From Eledone cirrhosa (taxonomy: Eukaryota), in the NCBI GenBank assembly GCA_964016885.1, contig OZ024745.1, positions 117,552,001 to 117,616,000 on the forward strand: DNA of 64,000 nt, written 5' to 3'. This document shows, in pieces, positions 2,895 to 64,000 of the stretch. Numbering within the stretch: the stretch's first letter is position 1; each line of letters starts with the position of its first letter. The notes under the pieces were generated by a model that was not told where the DNA came from, ran no database searches, and saw only the letters and a list, made by a program, of their open reading frames with translations. Position numbers and translations under genes: made by a program.

Positions 2895-3180
2895 CTTCTT
2901 CTTTTCTTCTTCGCCAACTTATTCCTGGGAGGGGAATGGGGGCAGAGTCCTCAAACACTGCTTCCAGCAGGTCCTGTCTGAAGCAACTGTCTCCAACTGC
3001 TCCAGCTGGATCCCCAAGCAAGTCCAGCCAAGCTCATGGATGTTATCCAACCATCTTGCTCAGGGTTTACCCCTGGGTCTCCTGCCAGTTGGTTTTGCCC
3101 ATAAAATATATGCAGCGATTCTTTCCTGAGACATTCGGAGAAGTAGTGGCTCTACTTGGAGCGACTCTCTGATCTCTGAG
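2895..3180 (-). mobile_element. 3' end of a second RTE-like LINE family (..GKPLSKMVG / WLDNIHELGWTCLGIQLEQL.., (GAA)n-like tail)
   Basis: Homologous to 17105-17260, 22600-22823 ([13 protein letters not shown]) and 30670-30800. Confidence 0.75.
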
Positions 3181-10715: not shown

Positions 10716-10772
10716 ATGGAATGCAAGCAAACTGGAATAAAGGAAAAGTGCACTGAGCACAAAGAGAATGAG
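10716..10772 (+). CDS. Possible alternative first coding exon (MECKQTGIKEKCTEHKENE)
   Basis: ATG-initiated 19 codons ending at a strong GAG/GTAAGT donor in phase 0, compatible with the exon at 23930. Confidence 0.3.
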
Positions 10773-11253
10773 GTAAGTTTTGAGGTATCAGCACTCTTTC
10801 TAATAGAATCAGATTCTTGTAGATTATATTTCTCAAGAAATAATTGAATCTACTAGAAATGAAATGCATCCAACTTGGTAGATGTAAACATTTAGTTTAA
10901 TCTTAGCTAGTTATGATCTTTAGTTGTCACCAAATTATATCTGCATGTCATTTTACTTGCTTTATGACATTTTCTTTTAATTTTTTTTTTCCAACATAAT
11001 TTGCTGTTACTTTATTGAAAATTATACCACATTATTAATCTTTATTCCTAGCATGTTTTTATGGAATATAATATCAAGAAAAATTTCAGCTGTCTCAGTT
11101 TAGTATAAACCCTCACAAAATTTGATTATTGTATTTTTCTCTCAAGTTAATTTATCAATCTAGAAATCTAGAAATAACAGTTATTATTTACAAATCCCGC
11201 ATTAAATGGAACAAAACCGTCTATCCCATGCTAGCATGGAAGATGGATGCTAA

Positions 11254-11291
<38 letters not shown>

Positions 11292-12304
11292 AGCTTTTTA
11301 AAATCAAAGAAAAAAAAAATTAGTTATCAACCATAACCTGAAGGAGATGGGCTCTTTAGTTTAGACAATTAGTGCTGGTGCCATTAAAAGATGCACCCAG
11401 TACACCCTGTAAATTGGTTGGTATTAAGAACATCCAGCCATAGAAAATTTGCCAAACAAAGAGTCAATAAGACTTTTTAGTTAAGTCAAAGTCTTATCAG
11501 CGTCCCTAGTGCTGATGCAACAATAAAATACAGCCTGGAAAGTACAGAAATAGATGTAAGTAAGATGCAGGCCCCCAGCCCATCTGAGGGTTCAGTGACA
11601 TCTGTGATGACCTGTCCAACTCTTGCCAGTAGGCAATGATGAAATGAGGTTAGTGTTAGGAAGGGCATCCAGCTGTAGAAACCAAGCCCAAATCAGTTCT
11701 GTATAAGCAAGGCATGGTCACCTGACCTAGCATTGCCTCCAACAGGACAACTCGTCTAACCCATGCTAGCATGGAAGAATGGATGTAAAACAGTGATGGC
11801 GATGATGGTATCATCATCATTTACCATCCATTTTCCATACTATTCCACACTGACAATACTTTATTCATCAAAGATAAATTATTGTATCGATGTATGAAAC
11901 TAATTAGGTTTTTATTTTTTTACTAAACCTAATTCTGGACATTGCTGAGATAGGAAACATTGTGTTTGTAAGTTTTATAAAAGGAGATATAAATATAGAA
12001 ACACATATGGCATATTATTATAGCAGATAAGCAAACATTTGTGATAATAGTCAGAAAAAAAGTGAAACAATCTAAGACAATAATAAACAATTCTCATGTG
12101 CAATGTTATATCACCTGTGAAAAGATATAAAAAAGAAATGAATTAAGTTTAGAAAATCTCACTCTACAATAAAATGTATTCATTTATTTTGCCTGAAACT
12201 GCTTTATATGGCAGTGTTGTTTATATTTCAGGGTCGTAATATTCTTTGCATCTTTTATAATATTTGAAGCAATTTTTTCAGATGAAGACCACATTTTGAA
12301 AATA

Positions 12305-12614
12305 TACTCTCAGGTCTCAAATAATGCCTCACCTCCATCTTCGTCGTCATCCCTATTAGATTTTGCTTAAATTTCATTTTAAGTGGTAGCATTCCTGCAA
12401 CAATTAATTTTCTTTAGACATTAAAAAACATTTTACATGAAAAAAAAGAACATTACAAGAAATCCCATATGTTATAAAATAAATAGGATGGGTTGGGGTC
12501 TCAATATGTAAACCAAACGACTAATTCCAGTTTTTAAAATAAATCAAGGCAGTCAACCTAGAAAAATTATCGATTTTTCACCCAACTCCTAATATTATTT
12601 GGGACCCAAGGGTA
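12305..12614. mobile_element. TA-flanked MITE (Tc1/mariner-like), TIR CTCTCGGGTCTCAAATAAT
   Basis: TIRs at both ends. Sister copies at 17901-18249 and 33965-34287. Confidence 0.8.
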
Positions 12615-12869
12615 TGTACTTGTCTAATCCTAGTCAATGTATATCAGCTTATTAATTGCTATACTTCTAATTAACAATAAAGCAACAATGTAAAACAAGG
12701 ATTTCATTTTAAACCATTACATTAGAAATTATGTCATGCTTTAGATGAATCATAGTTTGATCAAAATGTATTTTCTTAGTGTGACATCTAAAGTCACATT
12801 AAGAAAGTTTTCCTCATATTAAATAACATTTTCAGAACTAATAATAAAATGAATATAACAAATATATTT

Positions 12870-13064
12870 TTAACCCTTTAGCATTTACATTACTATATAT
12901 TCAAGATAAAGGCTTTACCTCACATAATATTGAATCTATGATATTTTGATATTATTTATTTTAAGAAGAATACCTTAACATCAGTATGAGTGGCTAGTTA
13001 CAACCGGTTTGAACAGAAATAGGTGAGAAAATTCTGGCCGGATACAGCCGGTTTAAATGCTAAA
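12870..13064. mobile_element. piggyBac-type MITE family A (~220 bp)
   Basis: TTAA-CCCTTTAGCATTTA...TAAATGCTAAAGGG-TTAA ends. Copies at 14878-15107, 19447-19663 and 41465-41710 (reverse). Confidence 0.8.
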
Positions 13065-13262
13065 ACAGTGTTGAGGTTATAACCCCAATAGTGAATAAAC
13101 AAATTAGCTTATAGATTTATTTCAACTTAGCTGGACATCATTCAGATTCAGTGCAATTTCAATCTCAAATATTCTCTGTTAGACTATCAGTCATTCTCAA
13201 GAATATCTCATTTAGTAAGTTGAGGAATTAATTGTGAAACAGTATAAAACATATGAATAAAT

Positions 13263-14135
13263 TTAACCCTTTCATTACCATATTTCTAATGTAAAACACT
13301 GCTTAGGATTTTCAAATAATTTTGAAAATAATCCAGAAATTGGAGGGATTTGTAATATAACTTTCTCGTTATTAAGCTGGTGTTTGGAACATAAGTTAAT
13401 GGTTCTTACATAAATTTATGATGGAAAATTTTTAGATAACTATAAGCACTTTAACCTTTTGGTTACCAACCCAGCCAAAACTGGCATTGGTTCTTTGAAA
13501 TAAAACCACCCATTTTAAAAATCTTCCAACATAATTTTATATAAGAAAGAACCTTATATTAAATTGCCATTTTAATGAAATAATTAATAAATGCATTCAT
13601 GAGTTTTATATTGAATAATAATATTTGATTCATTTGCAAACAAACAGCCTCATGAGGCTGTATTTTTGATGACCATTGCCATCCTTTTGTTCTAGCAGTG
13701 ACCCAGAGAAACAATCGACAATAATATTGTTTCTGGGTTGTTGCCTTTGTCAGGATTGTGTCTCTCTCCTGTCACACACTAGAACTCTTGAGAATATATA
13801 CTATTCTCTAAAGTATACATCGACTGATTAGCCTAATTTACATACCAAGCAATTTTACGTTTGGCTTTGCCAAAAATTAAAAAACAAATTTAGAATTTTG
13901 TTTTTGAATCAAATATTATTATTATTCAATATAAATCTCATGAATACATTTACACATCTGCTATGTTAGGGCAAAAGAAGAAATTCTAATTTTGAAATAA
14001 TTGATAATTTTAGTAAATTCTTCAATAAAATAGAGTGTATTTCGTTAGAAATGCAATTATGAAAAGGTTAAAACAAGCAATTTTATATTATAGAAGCAGG
14101 CACAGTTTCAGGTGGTTTGATATCAAAAGGGTTAA
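13263..14135. mobile_element. Three-layer nest: piggyBac-type MITE B > oppositely oriented MITE B (13451-14071) > TA-ended TIR element (13588-13952)
   Basis: Outer ends TTAACCCTTTC..AAAAGGGTTAA. The middle copy is bounded by duplicated TTAA. The inner element has ~50-bp inverted ends TAAATGCATTCATGAG / CTCATGAATACATTTA. Confidence 0.7.
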
Positions 14136-14211
14136 AATGTAACAAGTAAAATCTCAGTCTCTGTCATACAATATATATCAGTCAATATCAAGAATATATT
14201 ATTTAGTGATG

Positions 14212-14420
14212 GCGGTGGATTGGCAGAATCGGTAGAACGTCAGACAACATGCTTTGTGGCATATACTTATGGCTCTTTGCGTTCCAAGTTCAAATCCCAC
14301 CAAGGTTAGCTTTGCCTTTCATCCTTACGAGGTTGATGAAATAAAGCACCAATAATGCACTGGGGTCAATTTAACCAACTTGCCCCCCAAAATTGCTGGC
14401 CTTCGGCCTATAGTAGAAAC
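14212..14420 (+). mobile_element. Octopus-type tRNA-related SINE, full length
   Basis: 15-bp TSD TATTATTTAGTGATG (14197-14211, 14421-14435). Body GTTCAAATCCC..TTTGCCTTTCATCCTT..ATAAAGTACCAG. Confidence 0.9.
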
Positions 14421-14877
14421 TATTATTTAGTGATGTAGGTTTACTTATTAGTTTGCAAAGAAAAGTATGCAACACATAATAGAGCATATGAGTAAATTTA
14501 AAATGTAAGAATATAGTAATAATCTTATACTAAAAGCTATGCTATTGATTTATGATAAATATTGACTGATATGTAAATAATTTGACAAAGAGAGTTGTGG
14601 TTCTAATTGCATTAAAGCTGAATGAAACCCAACAAAGTTGAAATTGGATTTTAAATCCAAAAATTATATTATGCTCTAAGGTATGATATGTCATTTTTTC
14701 TTGTTCAATAAGTTTTTTTTTTCCAGGAGAAGACTTGCAGATTATTAGCATAATTGTGCACTTGAAAATCATCTTGTTCATTTTGTTATATGCTGTAGAC
14801 TATATAAAGCTACATATGTAAATACTAAAGAAAATTGACTAAGGTGTACAACAGGTTGTAAACAGTGATCCTGCTCT

Positions 14878-15107
14878 TAAACCTTTAGCATTTACATTAA
14901 TTTATATTTACTATCATATTTTCACAGTAAAGGCTTTACCTCACATAATTATCTCACATAATATCAAATCTATGAAATTTTGATATTATTTATTTTGAAA
15001 ACAATGCCTTAAAACATCAGTGTGAGTGGCTGGTTACAACTGGTTTGAACAGAAAGAAGTGGGAGAATTCTAGACGGATACGGCCGGTTTAAATGCCAAA
15101 GGGTTAA
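14878..15107. mobile_element. piggyBac-type MITE family A copy
   Basis: Same TIRs and body as 19447-19663. Confidence 0.8.
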
Positions 15108-16509
15108 ACTCATGTGAGATCTTTACTTGAATTTAGACTTTTTAAATTAAAATTGTGTCACTTTACCAATAAGAAAATAAGAGAGAAGAAGATAGAAATA
15201 AAGACACCTATGTGAAATCGTAGCAGTATTGATGTATAATTTGAAGAAAATATATTTCTCAATTTCTTCTTTGACAGATATTTTTTCATTCCACATGGGT
15301 ATTAAAGAATTGTTTTGTTGAAGTTTTTATATCTGAATGCTTTTCTCCTGCATATTATTCAACTACGAAGAAGGGAACCCCATTTTTGTCTTACAAATGA
15401 GAAGTAAAGTTATGTATTTTAGGTTCTACATACTTAATTATAAAGACTTCAACTATTTTTATACCAATTAAACTCATTATATTGATCTAAGGTTTGAAGC
15501 ATTTGTTCATAATCATTTTGTACATTGTCAGACTTCTCTAAAATTCCTTACAATATTACTTTCTAAAACACATGCATTCTTATGTAATAACTACTACATA
15601 TAATATATATCACTTATACTGGTTTATAAGTGGTACCTTTTTCCATGAAAATATATCATAAAAAAGCTAGCATGTGACTTATCTACTGGACTTAATCAGT
15701 TCAAAATATATGGTATATTATGCATGTGTGTAAAAGGGAGATGAAACCTGTACATAAATATATACTACACACACACATTGGGTTTGGTGCTTTTCAATAC
15801 TTTGCACAATAAACCTTTTCTAAATAGCTAAAATATACCATTTATAGTGCAAATATTATATTATTTTGGTGTCCACACCTTCTGTCAATGAGGATCTAAC
15901 AATTTGGTGATATTAAAGAATACTTAACAGCAAGCTTTTCTTTTCTCAAGGAATAACCTCTTTCCCACTTATCTTGGAGAACAAGGATCCAGAAACCATA
16001 TATTCCTTGTCTTACTATACTTAGTTGTATTTTCTTTAAAGCCTAAAAATTCATTCTATTACCATTAATTCTATTAAAACCTAATTGTTTTTGACACTTT
16101 ACAAGGTCTAAATATGTTCCATGAAGGAGTTAATTTCTTGTGTCTATTATAATATTGCCTCTGGATTATTAGTATCATTAGATACTGTTTAGATGAAAAA
16201 AAGTGACAAATTCTCTTGCTTAAATGTTATATGTTACCTTCCTTTTTTATTCCAGCTCTGTTTTCCCCTTGTTTAAAACTGCCCAATGAGCTCCTTTCTA
16301 CTTTTTACCTAAATACATGATCATTCTTTGTTTTGGATCTATACTAAATGTTCTCTGTAATTTCCCCTGAGAAAAAAACTTGAAATAGGTAATAATGGTA
16401 ATAGGTATTTGTGTGTGTGTGTGTACATTATTATCATCTTAAGAATCATTTTAACATCCATTTTTCCCTTTTCCATGTGTTATAGGAGTTTATACGTTAT
16501 AGCATATCA

Positions 16510-17050
16510 CCATTCACAGAAAAGATCCATAGAAGTGGTTAATAGTTTCCGATGTCTAGGTGATTTAATTAGCAGCAGAGGAGAGTGCTCTAAGAGCATA
16601 ATAGTTAGAATAAGGATAGTATGGAAAAAGTTGAGAGAGCTGCTTCCTCTGTTGACAACAAAAGGACATCTGTGTGTGAAGTATGATGCTGCATGGTAGT
16701 GAAACATGGGCTGTAACTGCAGAGGACATGCATAGACTGGAGAGAAATGAAGTAACCATGCTTTGTTGGATGTGCAATGTAAATGTGAGAAAAGGGAAGA
16801 GTTTGGAAGAACTGACAGAGAAGTTGGATTTAAGAGGAATCCAAGGTGATGCGCAAGGACGATGATTGCTGGGTGAAGAAGTGGAAGGTAGCCACTGTAG
16901 AGGTAGGCAGAAGTGGTGAGAGCTGATCTCAAATTGCTGAGACTAGCAGAGGAGATGACAAAAGAACGCGATGAGTGGAGAGATGTTGTGCTGAGAAGGA
17001 CCTGTCTGACACATGCAAGTGTAGAAAAATGGACATAAAAATGATGATAT
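16510..17050 (+). mobile_element. RTE LINE 3' fragment
   Basis: SIEVVNSFRCLGDLISS..WKKLRELLPLLTTKG and MLHGSETWAVTAEDMHRLERNE. Ends in ATGGACATAAAAATGATGAT. Confidence 0.9.
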
Positions 17051-17900
17051 ACTAATAAATTTATGAACATACAGCCACTTACACATTTGCTTAATGAAAA
17101 TTTGCAGAGTCTTCAAACACTCCTTCCAGCGAGTCCTGTCAGAAGCCACCATTTCCAACTGATCTCGTTGAATCCCCAAGCGAGACCAGCCGAGCTCATG
17201 GATGTTATCCAACCATCTTGCTCAGGTTCCCCTGGGTCTCCTGCCTGTTGGGTTTTCCCAGATATTTTAACCACATGTCCTTATTTCATCTTAATATAGT
17301 AATTGATAAGCTTTGTGATTTAAATACTCTGAACTTGAAATATACCTGTCAGGTAAATTGGTAAAATTGGGCAATTATTTTTCTGTAACTTATTTTCCTT
17401 TCTCAAACAAATAATTATTGGAATATTTTGAAACCTTTGTATTTAAAAAGTTAGAAAATTCTTTTCTTTTGTTTCATCTTTTGCCTTTAACATTGTTATT
17501 TCTTACTAATTAGAAGAGCTGATATTAGTGGTTTTATTTTGGAAAAAGTATCAATAGGCTTTACTAGCTGTTTTGATGTTTATTATATTTCTCTTTGTAT
17601 AATTTTCACAGCTCCATTATGCACATTTTGTAGTCTATTTTAGAAATGTCACTTGATTTGTGTATGAAGCACTTTTCTTTGAATTTCCAATTTTAATATT
17701 TGTATTTGTATTTATGATTATTTCAGGCAGATTTTGGTCTATTTAATGTAAATATGCATGTTACCAATTATGCTAATTTGTTAACAGAAATTTGTATATA
17801 ATAATGATGTCTGCAAAATATGTCACAAGTATAAAAATGGTTTATTTTGTTTATTACTCAGGAAGATTTATTCTTTAAACAGTTGCAAAAATATATGAAC

Positions 17901-18249
17901 TATTCTCGGGTCTCAAATAATAGATATGGTTGGAATAAATAGGATAGGGGTTGGAAAATCTGTAATTTTTCTAGGTTGTCTCCGTTGATTTTTTTAAAAA
18001 CCAGAATTAGTCGTTTTGTTTACACATTTCAAGCCCAACCCATTCTATTTATTTTATAATGTATATGTAATATTCTTTTTTTTTCATGTATGTCTTTTAA
18101 TGTCTAAAGAACATTAATTATCGCAGGAATGCTACCACTTAAAATAAAATGTTGCTGAAGATAGCTTAGCAAAATTTAATAAGTGGGGAGTGGGGGAGAA
18201 TCTGAAAAATTAATAAGCTGGAGAGACGATTATTTGAGACCCAAGAATA
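17901..18249. mobile_element. TA-flanked MITE (same family as 12305-12614)
   Basis: TATTCTCGGGTCTCAAATAA...TTATTTGAGACCCAAGAATA. Confidence 0.8.
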
Positions 18250-18378
18250 CCTGCTATAGATTTGCGCTTAGATTTATACATATTTTAGAAATTAGATTTT
18301 GTAAATGTTATTTTATTCAACTTATAAATGTTAAGTTAATTTATAATTAAGAATTTAAAATGTAAGTTTTAATGTATA

Positions 18379-18492
18379 CTAGACCACCCATGACCCATTG
18401 GGTCACATTCACTTAAAAATAATTTTTAAATAATTAAAATATACACAGACATGTATATAATGTAAAATGAAATTGGAAGGCCCATAAATATA

Positions 18493-18532
<40 letters not shown>

Positions 18533-18871
18533 GGTGTCTGTGACCTATATACACCGGTCACAGGCACACACATATATACATATATATACACACACACACA
18601 CTCTTAGAAATTGTTTCTTTGAAGTCACCAGTTATAATTTCATTCAACAACACCACCATCTCTCTCTCTCTATTTATGAAGGTACCCGGAAAAACCCCGT
18701 ATCTCGGAAACCCGTGCTCCGATTTACGCGAAACTTGTTTTATTCCATTTGTATTCCCATTTCAGGGTCAACTTCCTTTCAAAGTATTTTCCCATTATGC
18801 ACCCTTTTGGCTATATTACATTACAGGCAAGCAAGCAAGCAAGCAATCCCAGACTTTGAGTAATATATAGA
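18379..18871 (-). mobile_element. Non-autonomous Helitron
   Basis: Minus strand starts TC(TATATATT) after an A. It ends with hairpin TGACCCAATGGGTCA 8 nt before CTAG, followed by T (A|T target, no TSD). Internal (TA)n, (CA)n and (GCAA)n tracts. Confidence 0.75.
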
Positions 18872-19109
18872 TAAATATATATATCAAACCAAATGTATTT
18901 TGTTTTGTGCAAAATATAAATTTTAGATTATAAAATTATTAGAAATAAATGTAGGGTGAAAGTGAGTGTTAGTATAAAATGGACATATTTGTAAATAACC
19001 ACCTCCTTTTGGATGCTGAGTTTTCATCATTTGTAAGTGACCAACAGTATCTATTGTTCCAGATCAAATGAAATCTGTTATCTTCTGTTAAACATCAGCA
19101 CACCTTTAT

Positions 19110-19305
19110 GATAATAATAATGAAATTATTGTGTACAGTGCTCAGGTGCACTACAAGTCATCAAAGGTGATTTTATAGTACATAGAATAATGTACAAATC
19201 TCAGGGAAGTGAAGTGTATGGAGGGGGAATATCAGGTGTGGTGTTGGCGAATTTCGAGAAGCATAGAGGTTTTGAAGGATGCAATGTCCCGACAGCTAAC
19301 AACCT
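19110..19305 (-). mobile_element. 3' end of CR1/L2-type LINE (same family as 37090-38620)
   Basis: ATAATAATGAAATTATTGTGTA..GTGCTCAGGTGCACTACAA matches 37117-37340. Confidence 0.85.
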
Positions 19306-19320
19306 TTGCTTTTGAAAACT

Positions 19321-19766
19321 TTAACTTTTTTCTTACCAAACTACCTGAAACCTCCCCTGTTTCTAATATACAAAATTGTTTATTTTAAAGTGTTTATATT
19401 TATCTTAAAACCTTCCATTGTAATTTTATGTAAGAACCTTTTTTAACCCTTTAGCAATTACATTACTCTATATTTACCATTGTATTTTCACAGTAAAGGT
19501 TTTACCTCACATAGTTATCTCATATAATATTGAATCTACAAGATTTTGTTATTTATTTTGAGAACAATACCTTAACATCGGTATGAGTGGCTGGTTACAG
19601 CTGGTTTGAACAGAAAGAGGTGAGAGAATCTGGCCAGATATGGCCGGTTTAAATGCTAAAGGGTTAATTTATATTAACTAAATCCCTCCAAATTCTAGAT
19701 TATTTTCAAAATCATGAAAATTATAATCAGTGTTTCACATTAGAAATATGGTAATGGAAGGGTTAA
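19321..19766. mobile_element. piggyBac-type MITE B with MITE A (19447-19663) inserted at a TTAA
   Basis: TTAA duplicated at 19443-19446 and 19664-19667. Outer end TAGAAATATGGTAATGGAAGGGTTAA. Confidence 0.75.
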
Positions 19767-20619
19767 GGAAAGTGCTGTTAATATCCTTAACACGAGTCAG
19801 GCCTTTAATTCTGTTTAGGGTGAAAGGGTACTAGCAAAGACTACTCATTTGTAGAAAGTGACAAAGTCTCCTGTTTTACAGCAATTTTTTTCACTTTTAA
19901 TACTTCAACAATTTATACAACAAATATATTACGTGTGTATGAAAGTTATCTATATTTATTTTACTCCTTTGTTCTTGAAAGAAAATTCTTTCTAATTATC
20001 ATTTATAATTCTTTTATATTTCAACTCATTTTGTGGGGTGGGGGTGGGGTCTCATTTGTAATCATATTTATGTCTCTTAAACTTTATCTTTATTTTTTCT
20101 CTATTCCAGTATATTATATATAAAATGTCTCTATATAGACAACATTATTGTTTATAAGATACAAAACTATTCAAATGATATAAACATTTTTCAGTTTCTC
20201 TATCATTCCTATCATTTCTTTTGTCATATAGCAAAACATTTAGTTTTTATAATGTACATAAAGTTCAAAATATTTCAACTGATTAATTTCTTGGAAATGT
20301 AGCATATTAAATCTTACAAACATGACTATAAAATTTGGTGCTAGACAATGTTATAGATTAAGTCTATCACTCAAAAAACAGGAACAATCTCTCAAATGGG
20401 CCTATGTATAGTCTCTGTATACACAATTTCACTCAGAGAGCTTCCGTCAACCTGAGGCTAACTCCTTAGACACAAAGCCATTTACTTATATATATATATA
20501 ATTCCAGAGTCAAGCCAGATCAATACAGATCGAACCTTGATCTGATCAGTAGCGAAACACGCATCACCAACCAATAAATGTAATGAAGGAGTAACCTTAT
20601 ATTATTATATTACACTCTG

Positions 20620-20803
20620 GACGGTGAATTGGCAGTATCGGTAGAGGGCTGGACGCCATGCTTTCTAGCATAGTAACGTCCCTTTACGGTCTGAGTTCAA
20701 ATCCCGTCGAGGTTAACTTTGCCTTTCATCCTTACGGGGTCGATAAAATAAAGTACCAGTAATGTACTGGGTAATTGCTGGCCTTGCACCATAAGTAGAA
20801 ACA
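20620..20803 (+). mobile_element. Octopus-type SINE inserted into a GC-richer element (20500-20870)
   Basis: Perfect 16-bp TSD ATTATATTACACTCTG (20604-20619, 20804-20819). Confidence 0.9.
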
Positions 20804-20908
20804 ATTATATTACACTCTGTCTAGCTCTACACCTCGATACTGACATGAACCTAAACATCGAGTGCTCACCTGGGTGAACCTACAGTAACTCTGCGTTACA
20901 CTCCCTGG

Positions 20909-20944
<36 letters not shown>

Positions 20945-21413
20945 CATCATCATCATCATTTTACGTCCGCTTTTCCCTGCTTGCAAGGGTGGGACGGGAA
21001 CTGATTCTGGCTTGATTTCTACAGCTGGATGCCCTTCCTAACACCAACCCCATTTACAGTGAGTGCTGGGTGCTTTTTTGCCATGGCACCTCCATGACCA
21101 CTTTGCAGTGGAATGATATGGACCCCAGTCCCTATCATCTCATTTCTACAGCTGAGTAAACTGGAGCAATGTGAAATAAAGTGTCTTGCTCAAGGAAACA
21201 ACACATCACCCGGTCTGAGAATTGAACTCACAACCTTTCGATTGCAAGGCCAATGCTCTAACCACTAAGCCATGTGCCTCCATATACATATCAAAACCTA
21301 TAGTTTAAAAAAATTCAGAATATATCCATACTTATTTATATAAAACTAATATTAATATCAGTTTTATTACTTTATTCAATTTTTTTTTACACACACACAT
21401 ATATATTTATAAA

Positions 21414-21588
21414 AGGTGTAGGAAGCTTAAGCATATTAAAATGACTGCAAGTACAGTCAATTGCTGTAAAATAGTGCAGCCACTGGCAACTTCTTTTTCC
21501 GTGTCTAAAGGTCTTCTATTTTTATAAGCTATTTTATAGCAACTGACTTTATTTGCAGTTATTTCCTATGTTTGAGCTTCCGACATCT
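21414..21588. repeat. Degenerate inverted repeat, ~60-bp arms (old MITE)
   Basis: AGGTGTAGGAAGCTTAAGCATA..GCTGTAAAATAG versus CTATTTTATAGC..TATGTTTGAGCTTCCGACATCT. Confidence 0.7.
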
Positions 21589-21667
21589 GTAAACTTATTC
21601 CCTCAGCGTTTCAGAAATATGAAAGTTCAAGCTTCGTACATGAAGTTTGTATAGATAGGTAGATATG

Positions 21668-22215
21668 TTTCTTTATTAGCCACAGGGGCACAAAAGAAGG
21701 GGACAAATACAAAGGGGGAAGTTTACATACAATAAAAACGTGTAAAATATCACAAATGCAATTTAAAAATTAGTCGATTTTCCCCAATAGGGGGAGACAG
21801 TTCATATGGGTAACACAAACCCCCGAAAAAATGTGCAACCCTCATCTCCAGGAGTACGAAGAGTTTGTACTCCTTTCCTCTCCTCCTCCTTTTCCTCAAC
21901 CTACAGGCTGATATAGAGAGAAGGCCCATTCACTCGGGCCATTCTCACCACTTTCACCCACCTTTCATAAAACTTGCTGGGGTACAGCACATCTCTCTCC
22001 ATCCTGATTCTTCTTCCAAAGTGGTATTTGAAAAAAAGAATCAGTTGTTGGCCGGAGAGAAAGGTGTCTGACCTCAGCCCTTTTAACCTTGTCCACCATA
22101 CAACCTCTTTCGCCATAGCTATCACACAAAGGAAAACTGCCTCTCCTTCGTTTTTGAAGGAGGGTGGCGGTTTGATAGATAGATAGACAGATATGGTGGT
22201 GGTGGCGACAAACAC
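21668..22215 (-). mobile_element. Tx1/L1-type LINE 3' fragment
   Basis: AVFLCVIAMAKEVVWWTRLKG..LILFFKYHFGRRIRMER, homologous to 35376-35633. Confidence 0.8.
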
Positions 22216-22453
22216 TAATTTTTTTTTAATCTTGCATCTTTATGGAAAGATGGTAAGAGTGTGAGAGAGAGAGAAAGAGAACTAATAGACGTACTTTTTA
22301 AAACTTCAGTCATACTCAGGCAAGGGGGTGGTAAGAGTGTGAGTGAGTGAGTGGGGGGGGGGCAGTGGTGTAGACATTTTTTCTTTTTTAAACCTGCATT
22401 ATAAATGAGGAAAATATTCCATTTTAGTAATTATTTGTTAGTATATTGTGTGT

Positions 22454-22456
<3 letters not shown>

Positions 22457-22519
<63 letters not shown>
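22457..22519. repeat. (TA)n microsatellite
   Basis: Seen directly. Confidence 0.95.
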
Positions 22520-22529
<10 letters not shown>

Positions 22530-22890
22530 TATGTGTGTGTGTATATATACACAGACATATATAACATTTTAAAATATATATGTATATATGTCTTCTTATT
22601 CACCCTTTTATTCCTGAGAGGGCCGTAGGAGCATAGTCCCCCAGCGGGTCCTGTCAAAAGCAACCATTTCCAACTGATCCGGCTGGATCCCAAAGGTAGA
22701 CCAGCCAAGCTCATAGATGTTATCCAACCATCTTGCTTGGGGTCTACCCCTTGGTCTCCTGGCAGTTGGTTTTACTTGTAAAATCTGTCCAGCAATTCTT
22801 TGCTGAGACATTCTGATATTCAATTGGGAGTAACCACAGTTAGTAAGATACTCATTACATAGCAGAGTATAGATATTTAATATAGAAATG

Positions 22891-22939
22891 GCTTCTACAG
22901 TAGTAGAACTGTTTCATTCAGGAGAAATCATCAGGAAGC
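22891..22939 (-). ncRNA. Minimal type I hammerhead ribozyme motif (Penelope-like)
   Basis: Minus strand GCUUC-CUGAUGA-U(UUC UCCU GAA)U-GAAA-CAGU UCUACU ACUG-UA-GAAGC. Stem I has 5 bp, the core is intact, stem III has 4 bp and the cleavage triplet is GUA. Stem II is closed by a non-canonical U-U. Confidence 0.7.
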
Positions 22940-22940
22940 T

Positions 22941-22989
22941 GCTTCCTGATGATTTCTCCTGAATGAAAAAGTTCTAGTCCTGTAGAAGC
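22941..22989 (+). ncRNA. Second, inverted hammerhead copy with damaged stem III
   Basis: GCTTC-CTGATGA-TTTCTCCTGAAT-GAAA-AAGTTCTAGTCCTG-TA-GAAGC. Three substitutions relative to the other arm. Confidence 0.6.
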
Positions 22990-22995
22990 CATTTC

Positions 22996-23028
<33 letters not shown>

Positions 23029-23589
23029 ACACATAAAATGCCATATTAATTGTTAACACTTGATAGTGTTTTCTAATTAAATTGTGGTATTTCCATAGCA
23101 CCTACTAGTATATAATCAACAGTACTATTACAACTTATATTTGTCTGCATACACTAAAACTTAAAACAATTTTTTAACAATAACGTTGTTGCTTACAAGT
23201 TTCCAATGGGCCAATCACTGGGTCTCTGCATTTGTGTGAAGTCACGTGACTTAGTGCTTGGAGTGTAAGACTCGTGATGATGGGATCAATTCCTGAAGTG
23301 GGTAGCTCCTTCTGTTAGGAGTTGCGGCTGGCAGGTAGTATCAGCTATCAAAAAACCAATGGAAACATTGCTTCTTTGGTTTGATTTGACAATCAGCATT
23401 TATGATGGCCAGAATGACAAAGGAGCATATTTACTACTCAAGCAGAACAAAATACTGCAGGGTATTTTTGTTTAAAAGCACTGGTTTATTGCTTTGCCTG
23501 GTGATGTTTACCTCTTTTGCCAATATACATAAACTACAGGCTTCCACACAATTTCTGCCTACCAAGCTCCACATACATAGCATCCATAT

Positions 23590-23860
23590 AGTATGATCAA
23601 ACTTGGCACCACATGGTTTTGCTCAGTCGTTCCTCTTTTCCCACCATGCCTAAACGGCTTTCTTGTTTTCTGTCTTCATTTTCGTTTTTTTTCATGTATT
23701 TACTGGACATTCTTTCTGTTTCTCCATTGTGATCCTGTCTCTGTTTTGTACTCCTGAAGAAGGGCTTAAGCCCGACACGTCAAACTTTCTTTCCTCTTTT
23801 CAATATAAAGCATGAAACTAATAAAACTTTTTGTACCTCTGTCTGTTGTCTCCTTCAACT
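23590..23860 (+). mobile_element. Penelope-like terminal repeat remnant with mutated hammerhead
   Basis: CTGAAGA-A-GGGC-TTAA-GCCC-GACA(GAAA mutated)-CG-TC at 23754-23781, followed by a T/C-rich tract and AATAAA. Boundaries are approximate. Confidence 0.55.
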
Positions 23861-23929
23861 ATATATATATAATTTTGATCTTTTTTTTTTATTAATGTCT
23901 ATAATAATTACCACTCTACTTTGTTACAG

Positions 23930-24048
23930 GGCATCATGAATAAACAAGAAGTGTATCACCGAAGATCAACATTACCGGCTGGTAAACTATTAAGACGTGT
24001 AAGTTCTTTTGAAAAGGATCAGTACCCATATGAAGACTCAAATGACAA
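23930..24048 (+). CDS. Internal coding exon (GIMNKQEVYHRRSTLPAGKLLRRVSSFEKDQYPYEDSND[K])
   Basis: Acceptor ctactttgttacAG and donor GTaagt. Phase 0 in, phase 2 out, joining in frame with 2433-2516 and 26261-26344. Confidence 0.8.
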
Positions 24049-24649
24049 GTAAGTGAAAAGATTAGTAACCTCCAATCCAATCCAGGACCTTCTCACTCCT
24101 GTTGGAGGAACCCTTCCCTGTTTGACTTCCACCACTTTCTGTTTGGTTTTGGTTATGTCAGGGGTGTAGCCATACTCACCATGCTTGACCAATTGCAGAT
24201 TGGTGAGGCTATTTAACCCATAGTTAAAATGAATGGGCATTGCTCTGAGGAGTTCATCCACCCTTCTAACAACTCTTGTTTTTTTTTTTGTGCTGCTGGG
24301 GTTCCACTTACTCTCCTCACCAGACCAGGGTCTGGAAGGGGAGCCAGTTTAGGGTTACTTGTGTGTGTGTCCCTTTTATCTGTATGCTCTCTGCGTTTTT
24401 TTTTCTCTTTTTTTCTCTCCTTTTTTACTTCCCCAATAACTTACAAAAGTTATTGATGCACTGGAGAGATATATTGTCTTTAATCCATTGAAATGTCCAA
24501 GACCTCCAAGATAAAACTGAAGACGGGACTTGTCCCTTGTTTGTGCTTTCCTTTTATTTCTAAATATAATATATATATATATCATCAATCTGATTAAGAC
24601 ACATACTTCAATGGTTATGAGACTGAGTAATAGCCATCATCATCATAAT

Positions 24650-30468: not shown

Positions 30469-31632
30469 GTGAGTAAGTACACTGTGATATGATAGTTGCT
30501 TCATCCTGACAATAACAATAAACCTGGTCACATCAGTTGATCAATCAATCAATGGTTATTGGGCTACAATAATATGCTACAAATCATTGATATATTCATG
30601 CCAGTTGTATTCCTCATTCTGAATTGTGTGTTATACAATAACACACATGCATATATAGAGGAAGGTATGAGCTCAGCTGGTCTTGCTTGGAGATCCAGCC
30701 AGATCAGTTGGAAATGGTTGCTTCTAAGATGACCTACTGGAAAGAGTGTTTGAGGACTCTTCCCCCATGACCCTCTCAGGAATAAATGGGTGTAGAAGGA
30801 GGAGAAGAAGAACAACAACTCTCTGAAAAAGACAGTTAACATATCAGCTTTAACAACAGAGATTGGGTGGTCTACCACAGAAAAATGGTGGATATTATGT
30901 GACGGGAATCCTGAACATGAATGTAGTAACCAGCATAAATTGAATGATGTATCTTGGAGAGAACTTAAAAACAATGACTTTATTCAAATACACATAAAAC
31001 ATTTTCTGCACAAACAAATTGTAGCAGCAGAGGCTCACTGGATTAATCGTGTAGGTGTCACGACAAAAAAACACACAGTCCACGCTGTAAATGTGGCCGT
31101 GTAGGCAACACGGTAAAAACCTCCCAGTTCCACACTGTAAATGTGGTTGGTGTTAGGAAGGGCATCCAGCCGTAGAAAACCCGCCAGACAGTCCTATGCG
31201 AGCAAGACAACCAATCTTGCCTCAAGTGGGAAAACTCCCGTCCAAACCCATGCAAGCGTGGAATATGGACGTTAAACGATGATGATGATGATGATGATGA
31301 TTGTCTAATTGACATTATATTCCAGAGTCAAAAGGGGATTAGTGTTCTGTAGTATCTTTCATTTGATTGGCGATGTTTACAATCATAACTTCCTTAGACT
31401 GATTGAACATTTATCCCATTGGGAAACCCATGTCAGGAAGTGTGAGTTGCTGTTGTTGATATTGAAGTGGGTTCATTGAAAATCTGCAGAAACTGCTCCA
31501 TCAGTTTCACACACTGCTCACAGAATTAAATCATGTAACTGACAGCCTGCAAGCAAATACGAGAAAGGGAAAGAATATTTTCTTTGATGAAAACAAAAGG
31601 ATTCTGATACATATGCATATTCATTATTTCAG

Positions 31633-39111: not shown

Positions 39112-39247
39112 ATTCAGAAGAGGCCTTGCTATAAAAATGGACAATATGTTTGAAGGACTAATCCAACAACAAAGTAATTTGGTTCAACACGTCCAGAATA
39201 TGATGGTTAAGAGTGACTTGGACAATACATCCAATGAAAAACTGTAA
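39112..39247 (+). CDS. Coding exon (FRRGLAIKMDNMFEGLIQQQSNLVQHVQNMMVKSDLDNTSNEKL*); 3' boundary uncertain
   Basis: Long polypyrimidine tract plus ttctAG acceptor. Phase-2 entry is compatible with upstream exons and the frame is open to TAA at 39245-39247. It may instead splice out at GTtaag (~39206) or GTaaat (39244). Confidence 0.7.
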
Positions 39248-48960: not shown

Positions 48961-51223
48961 ACTTTCCTTGAGATATTTATCACAAGGATGACTGAGCACA
49001 GTAAAGTACCCCAAGGGTTGATTGAGGCTAGATAATAATTTCCTGACAGCAATAAGCTTCAGTGAGGTCCCCGCCCCGTGCCACGGTATTAATTGTTTTG
49101 CTTTTATACCGGCCCTATTCGCGACATTCGAATTGTATGGGATTAAAATATTTTGTTAATTTATTTTCACCTTAATCAATAAAGCTAGCGCAGTTATGTC
49201 CCTTAGAACGCTCAATTGTCTCCCTTACATTGTTGATTTGGATTCAAGCACTAATGTCTGGGCTGGGGACAGTTTAATTAAACTTTAATTGATAATCTTG
49301 CTCTGTTGACAAAATTAACACTCGGGGAAGGACTAAACACCAGTTTTTGGTAAGAAAGCCTTAATTATTTTCCGACTGGGATATTATTGTTTGAGTCAGT
49401 GTCAAAATTCACTGTGGGTTCTGATTGATGTATTTGCCAAAGAGGCTATTAAAAGCTTACCTCGTCTGTGTGTAAATTTAACATGCTTGGTTCCATCTGT
49501 ATAGAGGAATGTGTCGGCCTTTGTATATTGTTTCAAGAACTAATAGTTATGATCTGATCATTTAGGTGCTGGGCAAAAGCTAGTATTGGAGCTGGAATCC
49601 AATTGGCAACCTGCAGCATGGTACTGCTTTCTTTGCACATACTGCATGCCCCTTGTAAAGTTGATGTCATGGGATGATATTTAAGCTTGAGTTATGTCTG
49701 CTTTGAGGTATTAGTTTCGACTCTCTGCTCTCTGAGATCAACTTTGCCTTTCATTCTTTTGAGGTCAATAAAAAAAAATACCAGTAAAACATCCAGCCCA
49801 CACTAAAATGGTCATGTAGGTGTCACAACAAAACGCACTCAGCACACACTGTAAAGTGGTTGTGTAAGAGACACGGCAAAAAGCACCCAGCACACACTGT
49901 AAATGTGCATCCAGCCGTAAAAAACCAGCCCAAAACAGTCCTATATGAGTGAGACACGGTCACCCGACGCAACTTGCCTCAAATGGGACAAACCTGTCTA
50001 TCACATGCTAGCATGGAAGATGGGCGTTAAACGATGATGATGATGATGAGTACTGGGGGTCGATTCTTCCTCTATATCTCTTTATCACTTCTTTTCTTTC
50101 ACTCTCTATCCTTCTCTGGAAGAAATCATCTATATTCACACCTGGAGAGGAGATGGGTGCTGTATGATAATGCAACGGCCCTACAACCCTCTCAGTAGTT
50201 ACAGGATCATACACATGTCTGCTTTGACCATTCATGACACTTTCAGCAGCACACAACTCATCTTTCAAGTCCTGAAGTTACTTTAACAAATCATCCACGT
50301 TGACTACTTAATTTGTTTGATCCATTACAGAAGTGTGTATATTTAATGTTTGTCTGATTTTATTAGTTCTTTGCATAGACTGCCCAATTCAAACCTGATA
50401 CTACTGAGATGTGTTGTGTTTTGCTGTTTCAATGTTTGTCAGATACTGTGAGTGAGTGAAGGAGGGCATTTGTTGTTTAAAAAAGGCAAATCCACAAAAG
50501 GAGATTGAAAAAGTTTTCATGGAGCGACGGTGAGATAAAACAAACTGAAAGATTGTATATTTTCTGTTTTAAAAAAGAGTCCCTCCCATTCTCTCTCTCT
50601 CTCTCTCTTTTCAACTCTTTATCTCACTCTATTCCTCTCACATACAATGTTCACATTCATCTGTTTGTGTGTATAAATTCATATATATATACATTATATG
50701 CATTTACATATAGACCATTAAAAAACACAAGCAGCTGGTTAGACCCTTAAATAATGAGGGGCCTCAAAATAATCAATAGGCATGAATTTCTTTTCATTTC
50801 TTATGAGACCTGGGGTAATTTTTTTAATTGTTAGTCCCACCAAGTTTTAATCTGGCATTGTGTGAATATGTGTGTACATATATATATATAGAGAGAGAGA
50901 GAGATTTGTGTATATAAAAGGTAAACAGAAATAACAAAGTGAACAGCACAATATATGGAACAAATATATTAGTCTAACGCTTGAAATAACAGGGAGAGGG
51001 TTGCATGTTTAAATATGATTAGTTGTTTATTTACAATCCTGTCTCTCTTATTGAGGTATATGTGTATTTAGTTGTCTATGAATTCATATAAACACTTGCA
51101 TTTCTCTGTGTGTGATGTGTATGTCACTAAGACTGCAGGAGTATGTTTATTAACTGGCGTTTATTTAAATATCTTTGTAAAAACTATATAAAGTTAAATC
51201 ATATAGGTTTAGCAAAAAAAGAG

Positions 51224-54200
51224 CTTGGCTGACAGTCTACAATCTATATAACTTGGCTGACAGTCTACAATCTATATAACTTGGCTGACAGTCTACAATC
51301 TATATAACTTGGCTGACAGTCTACAATCTATATAACTTGGCTGACAGTCTACAATATATATAACTTGGCTGACAGTCTACAATCTATATAACTTGGCTGA
51401 CAATCTACAATCTATATAACTTGGCTGACAGTCTACAATCTATATAACTTGGCTGACAGTCTACAATCTATATAACTTGGCTGACAATCTACAGTCTATA
51501 TAACTTGGCTGACAGTCTACAATATATATAACTTGGCTGACAATCTACAATCTATATAACTTGGCTGACAGTCTACAATCTATATAACTTGGCTGACAGT
51601 CTACAATCTATATAACTTGGCTGACAGTCTACAATATATATAACTTGGCTGACAGTCTACAATCTATATAACTTGGCTGACAGTCTACAATCTATATAAC
51701 TTGGCTGACAGTCTACAATCTATATAACTTGGCTGACAGTCTACAATCTATATAACTTGGCTGACAGTCTACAATCTATATAACTTGGCTGACAGTCTAC
51801 AATCTATATAACTTGGCTGACAATCTACAGTCTATATAACTTGGCTGACAATCTACAATCTATATAACTTGGCTGACAGTCTACAATATATATAACTTGG
51901 CTGACAATCTACAATATATATAACTTGGCTGACAGTCTACAATCTATATAACTTGGCTGACAGTCTACAATCTATATAACTTGGCTGACAGTCTACAATA
52001 TATATAACTTGGCTGACAGTCTACAATCTATATAACTTGGCTGACAGTCTACAATCTATATAACTTGGCTGACAATCTACAATATATATAACTTGGCTGA
52101 CAGTCTACAATCTATATAACTTGGCTGACAATCTACAATCTATATAACTTGGCTGACAGTCTACAGTCTATATAACTTGGCTGACAATCTACAATCTATA
52201 TAACTTGGCTGACAGTCTACAATATATATAACTTGGCTGACAGTCTACAATCTATATAACTTGGCTGACAGTCTACAATCTATATAACTTGGCTGACAAT
52301 CTACAATCTATATAACTTGGCTGACAGTCTACAATATATATAACTTGGCTGACAGTCTACAATCTATATAACTTGGCTGACAGTCTACAATCTATATAAC
52401 TTGGCTGACAGTCTACAATCTATATAACTTGGCTGACAGTCTACAATATATATAACTTGGCTGACAATCTACATTCTATATAACTTGGCTGACAATCTAC
52501 AATATATATAACTTGGCTGACAGTCTACAATCTATATAACTTGGCTGACAGTCTACAATATATATAACTTGGCTGACAGTCTACAATCTATATAACTTGG
52601 CTGACAGTCTACAATATATATAACTTGGCTGACAATCTACAATCTATATAACTTGGCTGACAGTCTACAATATATATAACTTGGCTGACAATCTACAATC
52701 TATATAACTTGGCTGACAATCTACAATCTATATAACTTGGCTGACAATCTACAATCTATATAACTTGGCTGACAATCTACAATCTATATAACTTGGCTGA
52801 CAGTCTACAATATATATAACTTGGCTGACAGTCTACAATATATATAACTTGGCTGACAGTCTACAATCTATATAACTTGGCTGACAGTCTACAATCTATA
52901 TAACTTGGCTGACAATCTACAATCTATATAACTTGGCTGACAATCTACAATCTATATAACTTGGCTGACAATCTACAATCTATATAACTTGGCTGACAAT
53001 CTACAATCTATATAACTTGGCTGACAGTCTACAATATATATAACTTGGCTGACAGTCTACAATATATATAACTTGGCTGACAGTCTACAATATATATAAC
53101 TTGGCTGACAATCTACAATCTATATAACTTGGCTGACAATCTACAATCTATATAACTTGGCTGACAATCTACAATCTATATAACTTGGCTGACAATCTAC
53201 AATCTATATAACTTGGCTGACAATCTACAATCTATATAACTTGGCTGACAGTCTACAATATATATAACTTGGCTGACAGTCTACAATATATATAACTTGG
53301 CTGACAGTCTACAATATATATAACTTGGCTGACAATCTACAATCTATATAACTTGGCTGACAATCTACAATCTATATAACTTGGCTGACAATCTACAATC
53401 TATATAACTTGGCTGACAATCTACAATCTATATAACTTGGCTGACAGTCTACAATATATATAACTTGGCTGACAGTCTACAATATATATAACTTGGCTGA
53501 CAGTCTACAATCTATATAACTTGGCTGACAATCTACAATCTATATAACTTGGCTGACAATCTACAATCTATATAACTTGGCTGACAATCTACAATCTATA
53601 TAACTTGGCTGACAATCTACAATCTATATAACTTGGCTGACAATCTACAATCTATATAACTTGGCTGACAGTCTACAATATATATAACTTGGCTGACAGT
53701 CTACAATCTATATAACTTGGCTGACAATCTACAATCTATATAACTTGGCTGACAGTCTACAATCTATATAACTTGGCTGACAGTCTACAATATATATAAC
53801 TTGGCTGACAATCTACAGTCTATATAACTTGGCTGACAATCTACAATCTATATAACTTGGCTGACAGTCTACAATCTATATAACTTGGCTGACAGTCTAC
53901 AATATATATAACTTGGCTGACAGTCTACAATCTATATAACTTGGCTGACAGTCTACAATATATATAACTTGGCTGACAATCTACAATCTATATAACTTGG
54001 CTGACAGTCTACAATATATATAACTTGGCTGACAGTCTACAATCTATATAACTTGGCTGACAGTCTACAATCTATATAACTTGGCTGACAGTCTACAGTC
54101 TATATAACTTGGCTGACAATCTACAATCTATATAACTTGGCTGACAGTCTACAATCTATATAACTTGGCTGACAGTCTACAATCTATATAACTTGGCTGA

Positions 54201-63200: not shown

Positions 63201-64000
63201 TATATAACTTGGCTGACAGTCTACAATCTATATAACTTGGCTGACAGTCTACAATATATATAACTTGGCTGACAATCTACAATCTATATAACTTGGCTGA
63301 CAATCTACAATATATATAACTTGGCTGACAGTCTACAATCTATATAACTTGGCTGACAATCTACAATATATATAACTTGGCTGACAGTCTACAATGTATA
63401 TAACTTGGCTGACAATCTACAATATATATAACTTGGCTGACAGTCTACAATCTATATAACTTGGCTGACAGTCTACAATATATATAACTTGGCTGACAAT
63501 CTACAATCTATATAACTTGGCTGACAATCTACAATATATATAACTTGGCTGACAATCTACAATCTATATAACTTGGCTGACAATCTACAATATATATAAC
63601 TTGGCTGACAATCTACAATCTATATAACTTGGCTGACAATCTACAATCTATATAACTTGGCTGACAGTCTACAATCTTTATAACTTGGCTGACAATCTAC
63701 AGTCTATATAACTTGGCTGACAATCTACAATATATATAACTTGGCTGACAGTCTACAATCTATATAACTTGGCTGACAGTCTACAATATATATAACTTGG
63801 CTGACAATCTACAATCTATATAACTTGGCTGACAATCTACAATCTATATAACTTGGCTGACAATCTACAATCTATATAACTTGGCTGACAATCTACAATA
63901 TATATAACTTGGCTGACAGTCTACAATCTATATAACTTGGCTGACAATCTACAATATATATAACTTGGCTGACAGTCTACAATGTATATAACTTGGCTGA
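51224..64000. repeat. 28-bp satellite array (~456 monomers, runs off the window end), consensus ACTTGGCTGACAGTCTACAATCTATATA
   Basis: Strict 28-bp period; the line phase recurs every 420 bp (15 units) throughout. Confidence 0.99.

Follow-up and report, generated by a model that had tools for sequence, protein, structure and literature searches.

The locus and its surroundings

The window analysed here (the whole 64,000-nt stretch of Eledone cirrhosa DNA from contig OZ024745.1, positions 117,552,001 to 117,616,000, to which all coordinates refer unless a locus name is given) carries the C-terminal part of an MRVI1/IRAG-family gene, with four exons spread over 2424–39244 and separated by introns of 8–15 kb. 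The internal coding exon at 23930–24049 on the plus strand was identified by homology and is 95% identical to an Octopus bimaculoides MRVI1-family protein, and the further exons recognised by match (2424–2564, 10728–10772 and 39113–39244) are all on the same strand. One contig of run X4, a run whose kind is not on record, covers 23929–24048 with no mismatch. A search for runs on record as RNA found none, and no splice-type joint was seen in the contigs of four runs over the window or of two runs over L277, a related locus described below. Over its last 13 kb (51000–64000) the window shows a steady negative GC skew of about −0.2, which suggests a long tandem array.

The 13-kb intron at 10773–23929 contains a palindrome at 22879–23001 which had been described in an original prediction made from the letters of the window alone. 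This placed the palindrome some 0.9 kb upstream of a coding exon, which is correct as the 23930–24049 exon is real by homology and begins about 930 bp further on, and the geometry it reported is borne out by the sequence, with two arms of 61 bp (22879–22939 and 22941–23001), a 1-nt centre at 22940 and three mismatches. The palindrome has a folding energy of −88.7 kcal/mol (z = −19), and none of 200 shuffled sequences was equally stable. The extent given for it holds for the palindrome but not for the whole unit, which runs from 22819 to 23001 (183 bp) and has a minus arm that is 60 bp longer.

If positions are numbered from the first base of hammerhead stem I (+1), the long arm (22819–22939, minus strand) corresponds to +2 to +122 of a repeat family and includes a ribozyme and most of a 'tail', with 90% identity to the family column-majority sequence over its 121 nt. 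The tail segment (22819–22867, +74 to +122) is present on the minus arm only and ends 12 nt before the usual long end of the family (+134), at the point where a LINE-like 3'-end repeat fragment starts (22590–22818, minus strand). This fragment adjoins the tail and is not part of the Penelope-like element (PLE) discussed below; it has no Pfam match, is presumably RTE-type, and may have cut off the last 12 nt of the tail. The same LINE-like 3' end is also found at 2904–3139, 17126–17255 and 30666–30801, making four fragments in the window. The arm junction at 22940 is the putative RNA start (+1), from which the short arm (22941–23001, plus strand) covers +2 to about +62 before giving way to a (TA)n microsatellite (23003–23028), which is the usual flank of the repeat family and likely its target.

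Compared with the column majority of 24 long family copies, both arms have the same changes at +21 and +52. The minus arm is further changed at +38 and +40 (22903 and 22901), both in loop III, and the plus arm at +30 (22969), in the stem III pair adjoining the core. The original attribution of all three differences to damage in the plus copy is therefore mistaken, as two of them are minus-arm changes (22901 and 22903) and only 22969 belongs to the plus arm. The locus at 22819–23001 is a decayed ordinary copy of the repeat family.

The putative hammerhead ribozymes

Each arm, read outward from the centre, contains the CUGANGA, GAAA and UH core elements together with stem I (5 bp), stem II (3 bp, preceded by a U.U pair) and stem III, so that the type I hammerhead proposed for each arm is present by motif, with the core positions (C3–A9, G12–A14, A15.1–U16.1 and H17) and three stems in both. 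The minus hammerhead lies at 22890–22940, with its core at 22934–22928 and 22915–22912 and a predicted cut after 22896, the same site as was originally named; the plus hammerhead, which is on the host sense strand, lies at 22940–22990, with its core at 22946–22952 and 22965–22968 and a predicted cut after 22984. The two private changes of the minus arm (22901 and 22903) add a fifth pair to stem III and weaken the self-complementary loop (self-duplex of −10.0 kcal/mol versus −12.8 kcal/mol for the family-type helix III of a sister copy), and the change at 22969 breaks the plus-arm stem III pair next to the core (predicted hammerhead fold of −0.3 kcal/mol versus −8.9 kcal/mol for the minus arm).

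The Rfam hammerhead models do not recognise these sequences: neither a 3-kb scan nor one restricted to the minus arm gave a hammerhead at E ≤ 10, with only weak sub-threshold matches to microRNA hairpins, so the ribozyme call rests on motif and covariation and not on a family hit. The covariation is seen between the palindrome's own subfamily and a sister subfamily, where seven of the 51 ribozyme letters differ; four of these form two compensatory stem I pairs and three are in loop II, with no differences in the core and stems II–III, and the 30 nt upstream of stem I are identical at only 20 positions. Core and stem pairing are in this way kept in the sister subfamily, as had been expected of a genuine hammerhead, and the stem I covariation (two events) is suggestive of a real ribozyme though not proof of one.

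It should be noted that the 10.1–11.1 position is occupied by U.U and not the standard pair, which is the normal state of the palindrome's family, and that this is a natural hammerhead variant (PMC3088659). Other hammerhead families in the loci we fetched share the U.U pair in front of stem II. At least eight such families were seen there (L042, L053, L082, L093, L098, L132, L147, L180 and others), several of which form opposite-strand pairs and several of which have the U.U. The prediction that each ribozyme is preceded by its own antisense holds on either strand, and the predicted probability of stem I pairing inside the palindrome is about 1e-42. The ribozyme is thus predicted to be locked in a 61-bp hairpin at this locus, doing nothing for the host.

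A high-copy family of head-to-head pairs

In the 3.0-Gb genome we counted 2,175 exact matches to the 26-nt core pattern (none for the reversed control) and 5,078 to the 23-mer directly after the cut site, the latter corresponding to over 5,000 arms. At least 987 head-to-head pairs were found using exact 13-mers 0–30 nt apart, with the window palindrome among them, and in the 50 pair loci listed the spacer is mostly 4–10 nt, which places the junction within the 5' strand of stem I. The checks that had been suggested, genome-wide copy number and linkage to an RT-endonuclease, thus both come out in favour of the prediction, given these counts and the continuation of the sequence into an ORF described below. 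The head-to-tail tandem hammerhead units which characterise non-LTR retrozymes (as defined in 10.64898/2026.07.22.740005) are absent from the window, where there is a single head-to-head pair and no other copy.

At least six places on contig C1 (L133, L152, L162, L163, L207 and L210) carry duplicates of a single insertion of a variant copy next to a LINE fragment, multiplied as part of a larger unit. The 3' flank common to L151, L198 and this group was considered as an extension of the element and rejected, as it reflects duplication of one insertion.

The 5' ends of the copies

We sampled 5' ends from 94 arms anchored just after the cut site (the first 90 loci on contig C1, including a few duplicates), and found that 51 start at +1 to +8, 14 extend upstream, and 3 start at +44 to +46, i.e. 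at the cut site. A tail-anchored set gave a similar picture (37/68 at +1 to +8 and 3/68 at the cut site), and there is no pile-up of 5' ends at the predicted cut site in either set. In both subfamilies a TATA box starts 30 nt above +1, and a distance of about 30 nt between TATA and the start is the usual polymerase II spacing.

The base at −1 is C in the element, and G is found in its place in 91 of 152 AT-flanked copies of the palindrome's own subfamily (32/58 and 59/94). Among the first 100 of 433 sister-subfamily copies, G occurs in 49, C in 25, T in 18 and A in 8 (both counts were made by eye); the 25 copies with the templated C imply that the start may vary by a base. Eighteen of 20 fetched copies with the extra G have unrelated TA flanks and the other two adjoin an inverted piece. 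In a small control which leaves out the 20 pre-selected loci, the extra G was found in 4/4 copies starting at +1 (three of them independent) compared with 2/9 truncated copies. In L1, an extra G at full-length 5' junctions has been read as a copy of the cap (PMC11702581). From the 5' ends at +1, the TATA spacing and the extra G we infer a capped, uncut RNA that starts at +1, and judged on these sequence features such a start is probable. The Drosophila virilis Penelope promoter is described as internal and TATA-less (PMC2377424), so a TATA-driven start would not be general for PLEs.

The 3' ends and the pairing of long and short arms

The 3' ends of 157 arms from 120 loci fall mainly into two groups, with 71 at +65 to +74 and 61 at +123 to +134, to which we refer as short and long. 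As the short end blends into (TA)n, +73 is to be taken as an upper bound for it. Short ends also occur on arms without an adjacent inverted partner.

The two kinds of end are not combined at random. Of 42 head-to-head pairs, 34 are long+short, five short+short, none long+long, and three have a truncated arm, when independence would lead us to expect 19 long+short, 12 short+short and seven long+long (p = 1.4e-6). A second set taken from the remaining 162 loci has 26 pairs including that of the window, of which 24 are long+short, one short+short, none long+long and one has a truncated arm. Over both sets 58/68 pairs are long+short and 0/68 long+long, and an inverted 5'-truncated pLTR piece with a tail at one end only, which is a recognised PLE trait, is therefore found in 58/68 pairs.

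Paired arms also tend to be alike in sequence, with the same loop II subfamily letters in 24–25 of 26 pairs and agreement in 150 of 208 cells over eight polymorphic columns, compared with 121 ± 7 in shuffles. These common letters could alternatively reflect sources of the same age or later gene conversion. In pairs with one arm complete to +1 and the other starting from +5 onwards, it was the long arm that was complete in six cases and the short arm in three.

The parent element

Long family copies extend about 320 nt upstream of +1 into a pLTR with CCAAT boxes at about −82 and −63 and the TATA box at −30, and in the other direction the long end continues into common sequence in L109 and at one more place. 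One copy, L245 (96% identity to the family majority), continues into the start of an ORF at +183, and the pLTR is likewise continuous into an ORF start in L246 and L253. The original view of the unit as Penelope-derived is upheld by this continuity, since the ORF is the RT-endonuclease ORF of a Hydra-type element. Between the long end and the ORF start L245 also has a pyrimidine-rich stretch ending in AG (L245:1520–1527) that resembles a splice acceptor, and a leader intron there could remove short upstream reading frames inside the ribozyme.

A search with the L245 junction gave 40 scored matches out of 399 candidates, many of them from the sister subfamily, whose pLTR is about 81% identical. 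Six of eight fetched loci have an intact 713-aa ORF and all six are of the sister subfamily; the other two are of the palindrome's own subfamily and have no intact ORF, and the own-subfamily ORF starts we inspected are broken. In L277 the order is inverted pLTR, pLTR, 713-aa ORF (2.1 kb), a long microsatellite-like region and a second pLTR, with 4,797 bp from ribozyme to ribozyme. Near some copies lie ORF fragments that belong to other families of PLEs (L091, L101, L106, L115 and L244); these were rejected as partners because they have other repeats or lack a continuous junction.

The 713-aa ORF has RWR, DKT and active-site-like YRDD motifs, a CxCx5C linker, and CxxC and CxH at the C-terminus. 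Published marks of the Hydra clade are RWK, DKT, CxCx5C, CxxC, CxH, GIY-YIG and (TA)n targets (PMC8557442), and of these DKT, CxCx5C, CxxC and CxH agree when read directly, RWR stands at the position of the N-terminal RWK, and the family is inserted in (TA)n at the fetched loci. The unit of 4,797 bp compares with a general size of under 3 kb for the clade, which is a general trait and not a strict criterion. The protein itself has no Pfam RT or GIY-YIG match; of 8,000 candidates scored, 1,407 are relatives at E ≤ 1e-20, and one of these (P0074, 41% identical over its full length) passes the Pfam GIY-YIG cut-off at residues 599–639. Going by motifs and structure compared with the published description, the parent is probably a Hydra-clade PLE, and the palindrome is almost certainly a stub of a PLE.

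The sister loci with near-identical intact ORFs (L275–L278, L281 and L282; e.g. L277:2283–4424) make up a young Hydra-type subfamily with a 2.3-kb (TA/TG)-rich 3' region, and judging by this they have likely been active recently. Upstream of the L277 ribozyme (L277:1989–2073) several A>G differences are present in contigs of run X4, with one to three contigs each, and are rare or absent in run X1; they could represent A-to-I editing of family transcripts.

Origin of the stubs

We propose that the palindrome arose when the front end of a Hydra-clade PLE was inserted head to head, giving a unit of 183 bp, by copying a capped, uncut RNA twice, and assign this reading a probability of about 0.7. 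Family membership, copy number, the link to the ORF, the positions of the 5' and 3' ends, the extra G and the long+short pairing are all direct observations on the sequences. In the sequence of events we envisage, transcription from the pLTR promoter would begin at the first base of hammerhead stem I to give a capped RNA, and the element protein would nick both strands of a (TA)n target. Reverse transcription would then begin at one of two internal positions of this RNA, about +62 to +73 and about +131 to +134, yielding only a 'strong-stop'-like cDNA of 70–130 nt that is copied back to the cap, from which the extra G would derive. The two strands of one target would use different starts, probably on one RNA, to give one long and one short arm, and the cDNA 3' ends would join through 1–4 bp of complementarity at stem I. 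The ribozyme would be a passenger of the pLTR in all of this.

Several of these steps have a precedent in the anole PLE protein, which in vitro nicks and extends both target strands on AT-rich DNA, initiates at two internal sites marking the limits of the tail, and works without ribozyme cleavage (PMC11167929). The start site is reported to be alike on both strands in the same system, so the absence of long+long pairs is not predicted by that alone. The 0/68 long+long pairs fit one RNA with one long and one short start, and they would fit trimming of one end as well; we consider the odds on one RNA with two starts to be about even. The more specific suggestion that the stubs are integrated strong-stop cDNAs, made from one capped RNA by a protein dimer in which each subunit has its own fixed start 60 nt apart, is tentative and we put it a little below even odds. 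If true, it would explain the inverted pLTR and the one-sided PLE tail together, and would rule out antisense self-priming for the Hydra clade with the ribozyme uncut during insertion.

Two other routes to an inverted pair need to be weighed. Both cDNAs might come from the long site, or from two RNAs, with endonuclease or repair then trimming one end back to the AT-rich stretch near +70, much as the one-sided tail has been proposed to result from resolving an intermediate (PMC8557442). The short end does lie in an AT-rich stretch resembling the (TA)n target, PLE endonucleases cut AT-rich DNA including their own (PMC11167929), and trimming too predicts that long+long pairs should be missing; we nevertheless regard it as unlikely, because short ends are found on arms with no inverted partner alongside and because the anole tail is the stretch between two RT starts that were mapped in vitro (PMC11167929). 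Alternatively, one cDNA or antisense RNA might prime itself at stem I and be copied, as in the self-priming model put forward for an antisense template (PMC3846280). A fold-back of 2 bp with a loop of 3–4 nt would produce the two commonest junctions (spacers of 5–6 nt among the 50 loci listed) and would account for the subfamily letters common to paired arms. Against this, the arm lacking the loop bases is the long one in 3/9 informative pairs and so was not copied from the other, centres of 0 or 1 nt such as that of the window palindrome leave no loop, and ends at TATA+30 carrying an extra G, which are also seen in copies without an inverted arm, are left unexplained by an antisense template. 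We therefore hold fold-back to be improbable.

The remaining explanations look to the host or to a different class of mobile element. That the palindrome is intronic dsRNA kept by the host, or an editing-dependent ribozyme switch for the MRVI1-family gene as originally suggested, would suit its position in an intron of a transcribed-type gene and the 61-bp hairpin it would form, and the A>G differences on family-related run X4 contigs at another element are a weak hint of editing. It is very improbable, however, for an insertion with at least 987 like pairs, situated some 930 bp from the exon within an intron of 13 kb, given that both arms diverge from the family majority, stem III of the host-sense ribozyme is disrupted, and no A>G differences are listed over 22879–23001 (contigs only). 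A MITE with long inverted arms and TA flanks, in which the hammerhead is incidental, would also be short, palindromic, high in copy number and TA-flanked, but the variable centre, the unequal arms of varying length and the continuation of the sequence into an RT-endonuclease ORF leave this explanation with virtually no weight.

The family is of use beyond this one ordinary locus. In E. cirrhosa there are thousands of stubs with ends indicative of a capped sense template and of a start at the ribozyme's first base, and these, the strict long+short pairing and the intact ORF of the sister subfamily make competing models of PLE insertion directly testable. Insertions of this kind also seed about a thousand hairpins of 50–70 bp in an octopod genome, which are possible bulk substrates for editing.

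Comparison with known systems

Hammerheads in PLE repeats, inverted pLTRs, palindromic junctions and one-sided tails are already in print, and the origin of the inverted ends and tails of PLEs is stated to be an open question (PMC8557442, PMC3846280). In a literature search that covered mainly the main texts of open-access papers, no paper was listed that deals with strong-stop products, a cap-derived G or strict long+short pairing for PLEs; the Hydra hammerheads and element consensus files that accompany PMC8557442 may bear on this. The ribozymes described here resemble the minimal PLE hammerheads of Cervera and de la Pena 2014 (PMC4209133) in being type I with a self-complementary helix III fit for dimers. 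They differ in having a 3-bp stem II behind U.U, not G-C, and a 4-bp stem III with an 8-nt loop, and in the abutting of the pairs, as the opposite-strand hammerheads of PLEs are reported there to be 100–700 bp apart.

Head-to-head pLTRs with palindromic junctions, an optional tail on one inverted pLTR, and TATA and initiator-like motifs are all known from the Adineta vaga Penelope families (Arkhipova et al. 2013, PMC3846280), where palindromes are attributed to self-priming on an antisense template, whereas the ends seen here better fit a capped sense template. L1 twin priming (PMC11702581) is comparable in that RT extends two target ends which are joined by microhomology and in the extra G at full-length 5' junctions. 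L1, however, starts at poly(A) and inverts the 5' part only, whereas the two cDNAs proposed here span the same front portion of the RNA.

A biochemical parallel is offered by PAc, a Poseidon element of the green anole studied in vitro (Frangieh et al. 2024, PMC11167929), in which two RT starts bound the tail, both strands are nicked, the targets are AT-rich and the template is uncut RNA. Neither a cap-derived G nor long+short pairing is mentioned in the text consulted for that study. PAc belongs to another clade and its ORF starts inside the ribozyme, compared with about 130 nt after it here. The element itself resembles those of the Hydra clade (Craig et al. 2021, PMC8557442), with which it shares a single ORF (here with a putative C-terminal GIY-YIG-type region), a hammerhead in the pLTR, (TA)n targets, and an inverted 5' pLTR piece with a tail at one end only. 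It departs from the description of that clade in having RWR in place of RWK, a unit of 4.8 kb owing to a long microsatellite-like 3' region, and a tail of about 60 nt where those of the clade are 30–40 nt, and in that most copies in E. cirrhosa are stubs of 70–130 nt from the ribozyme.
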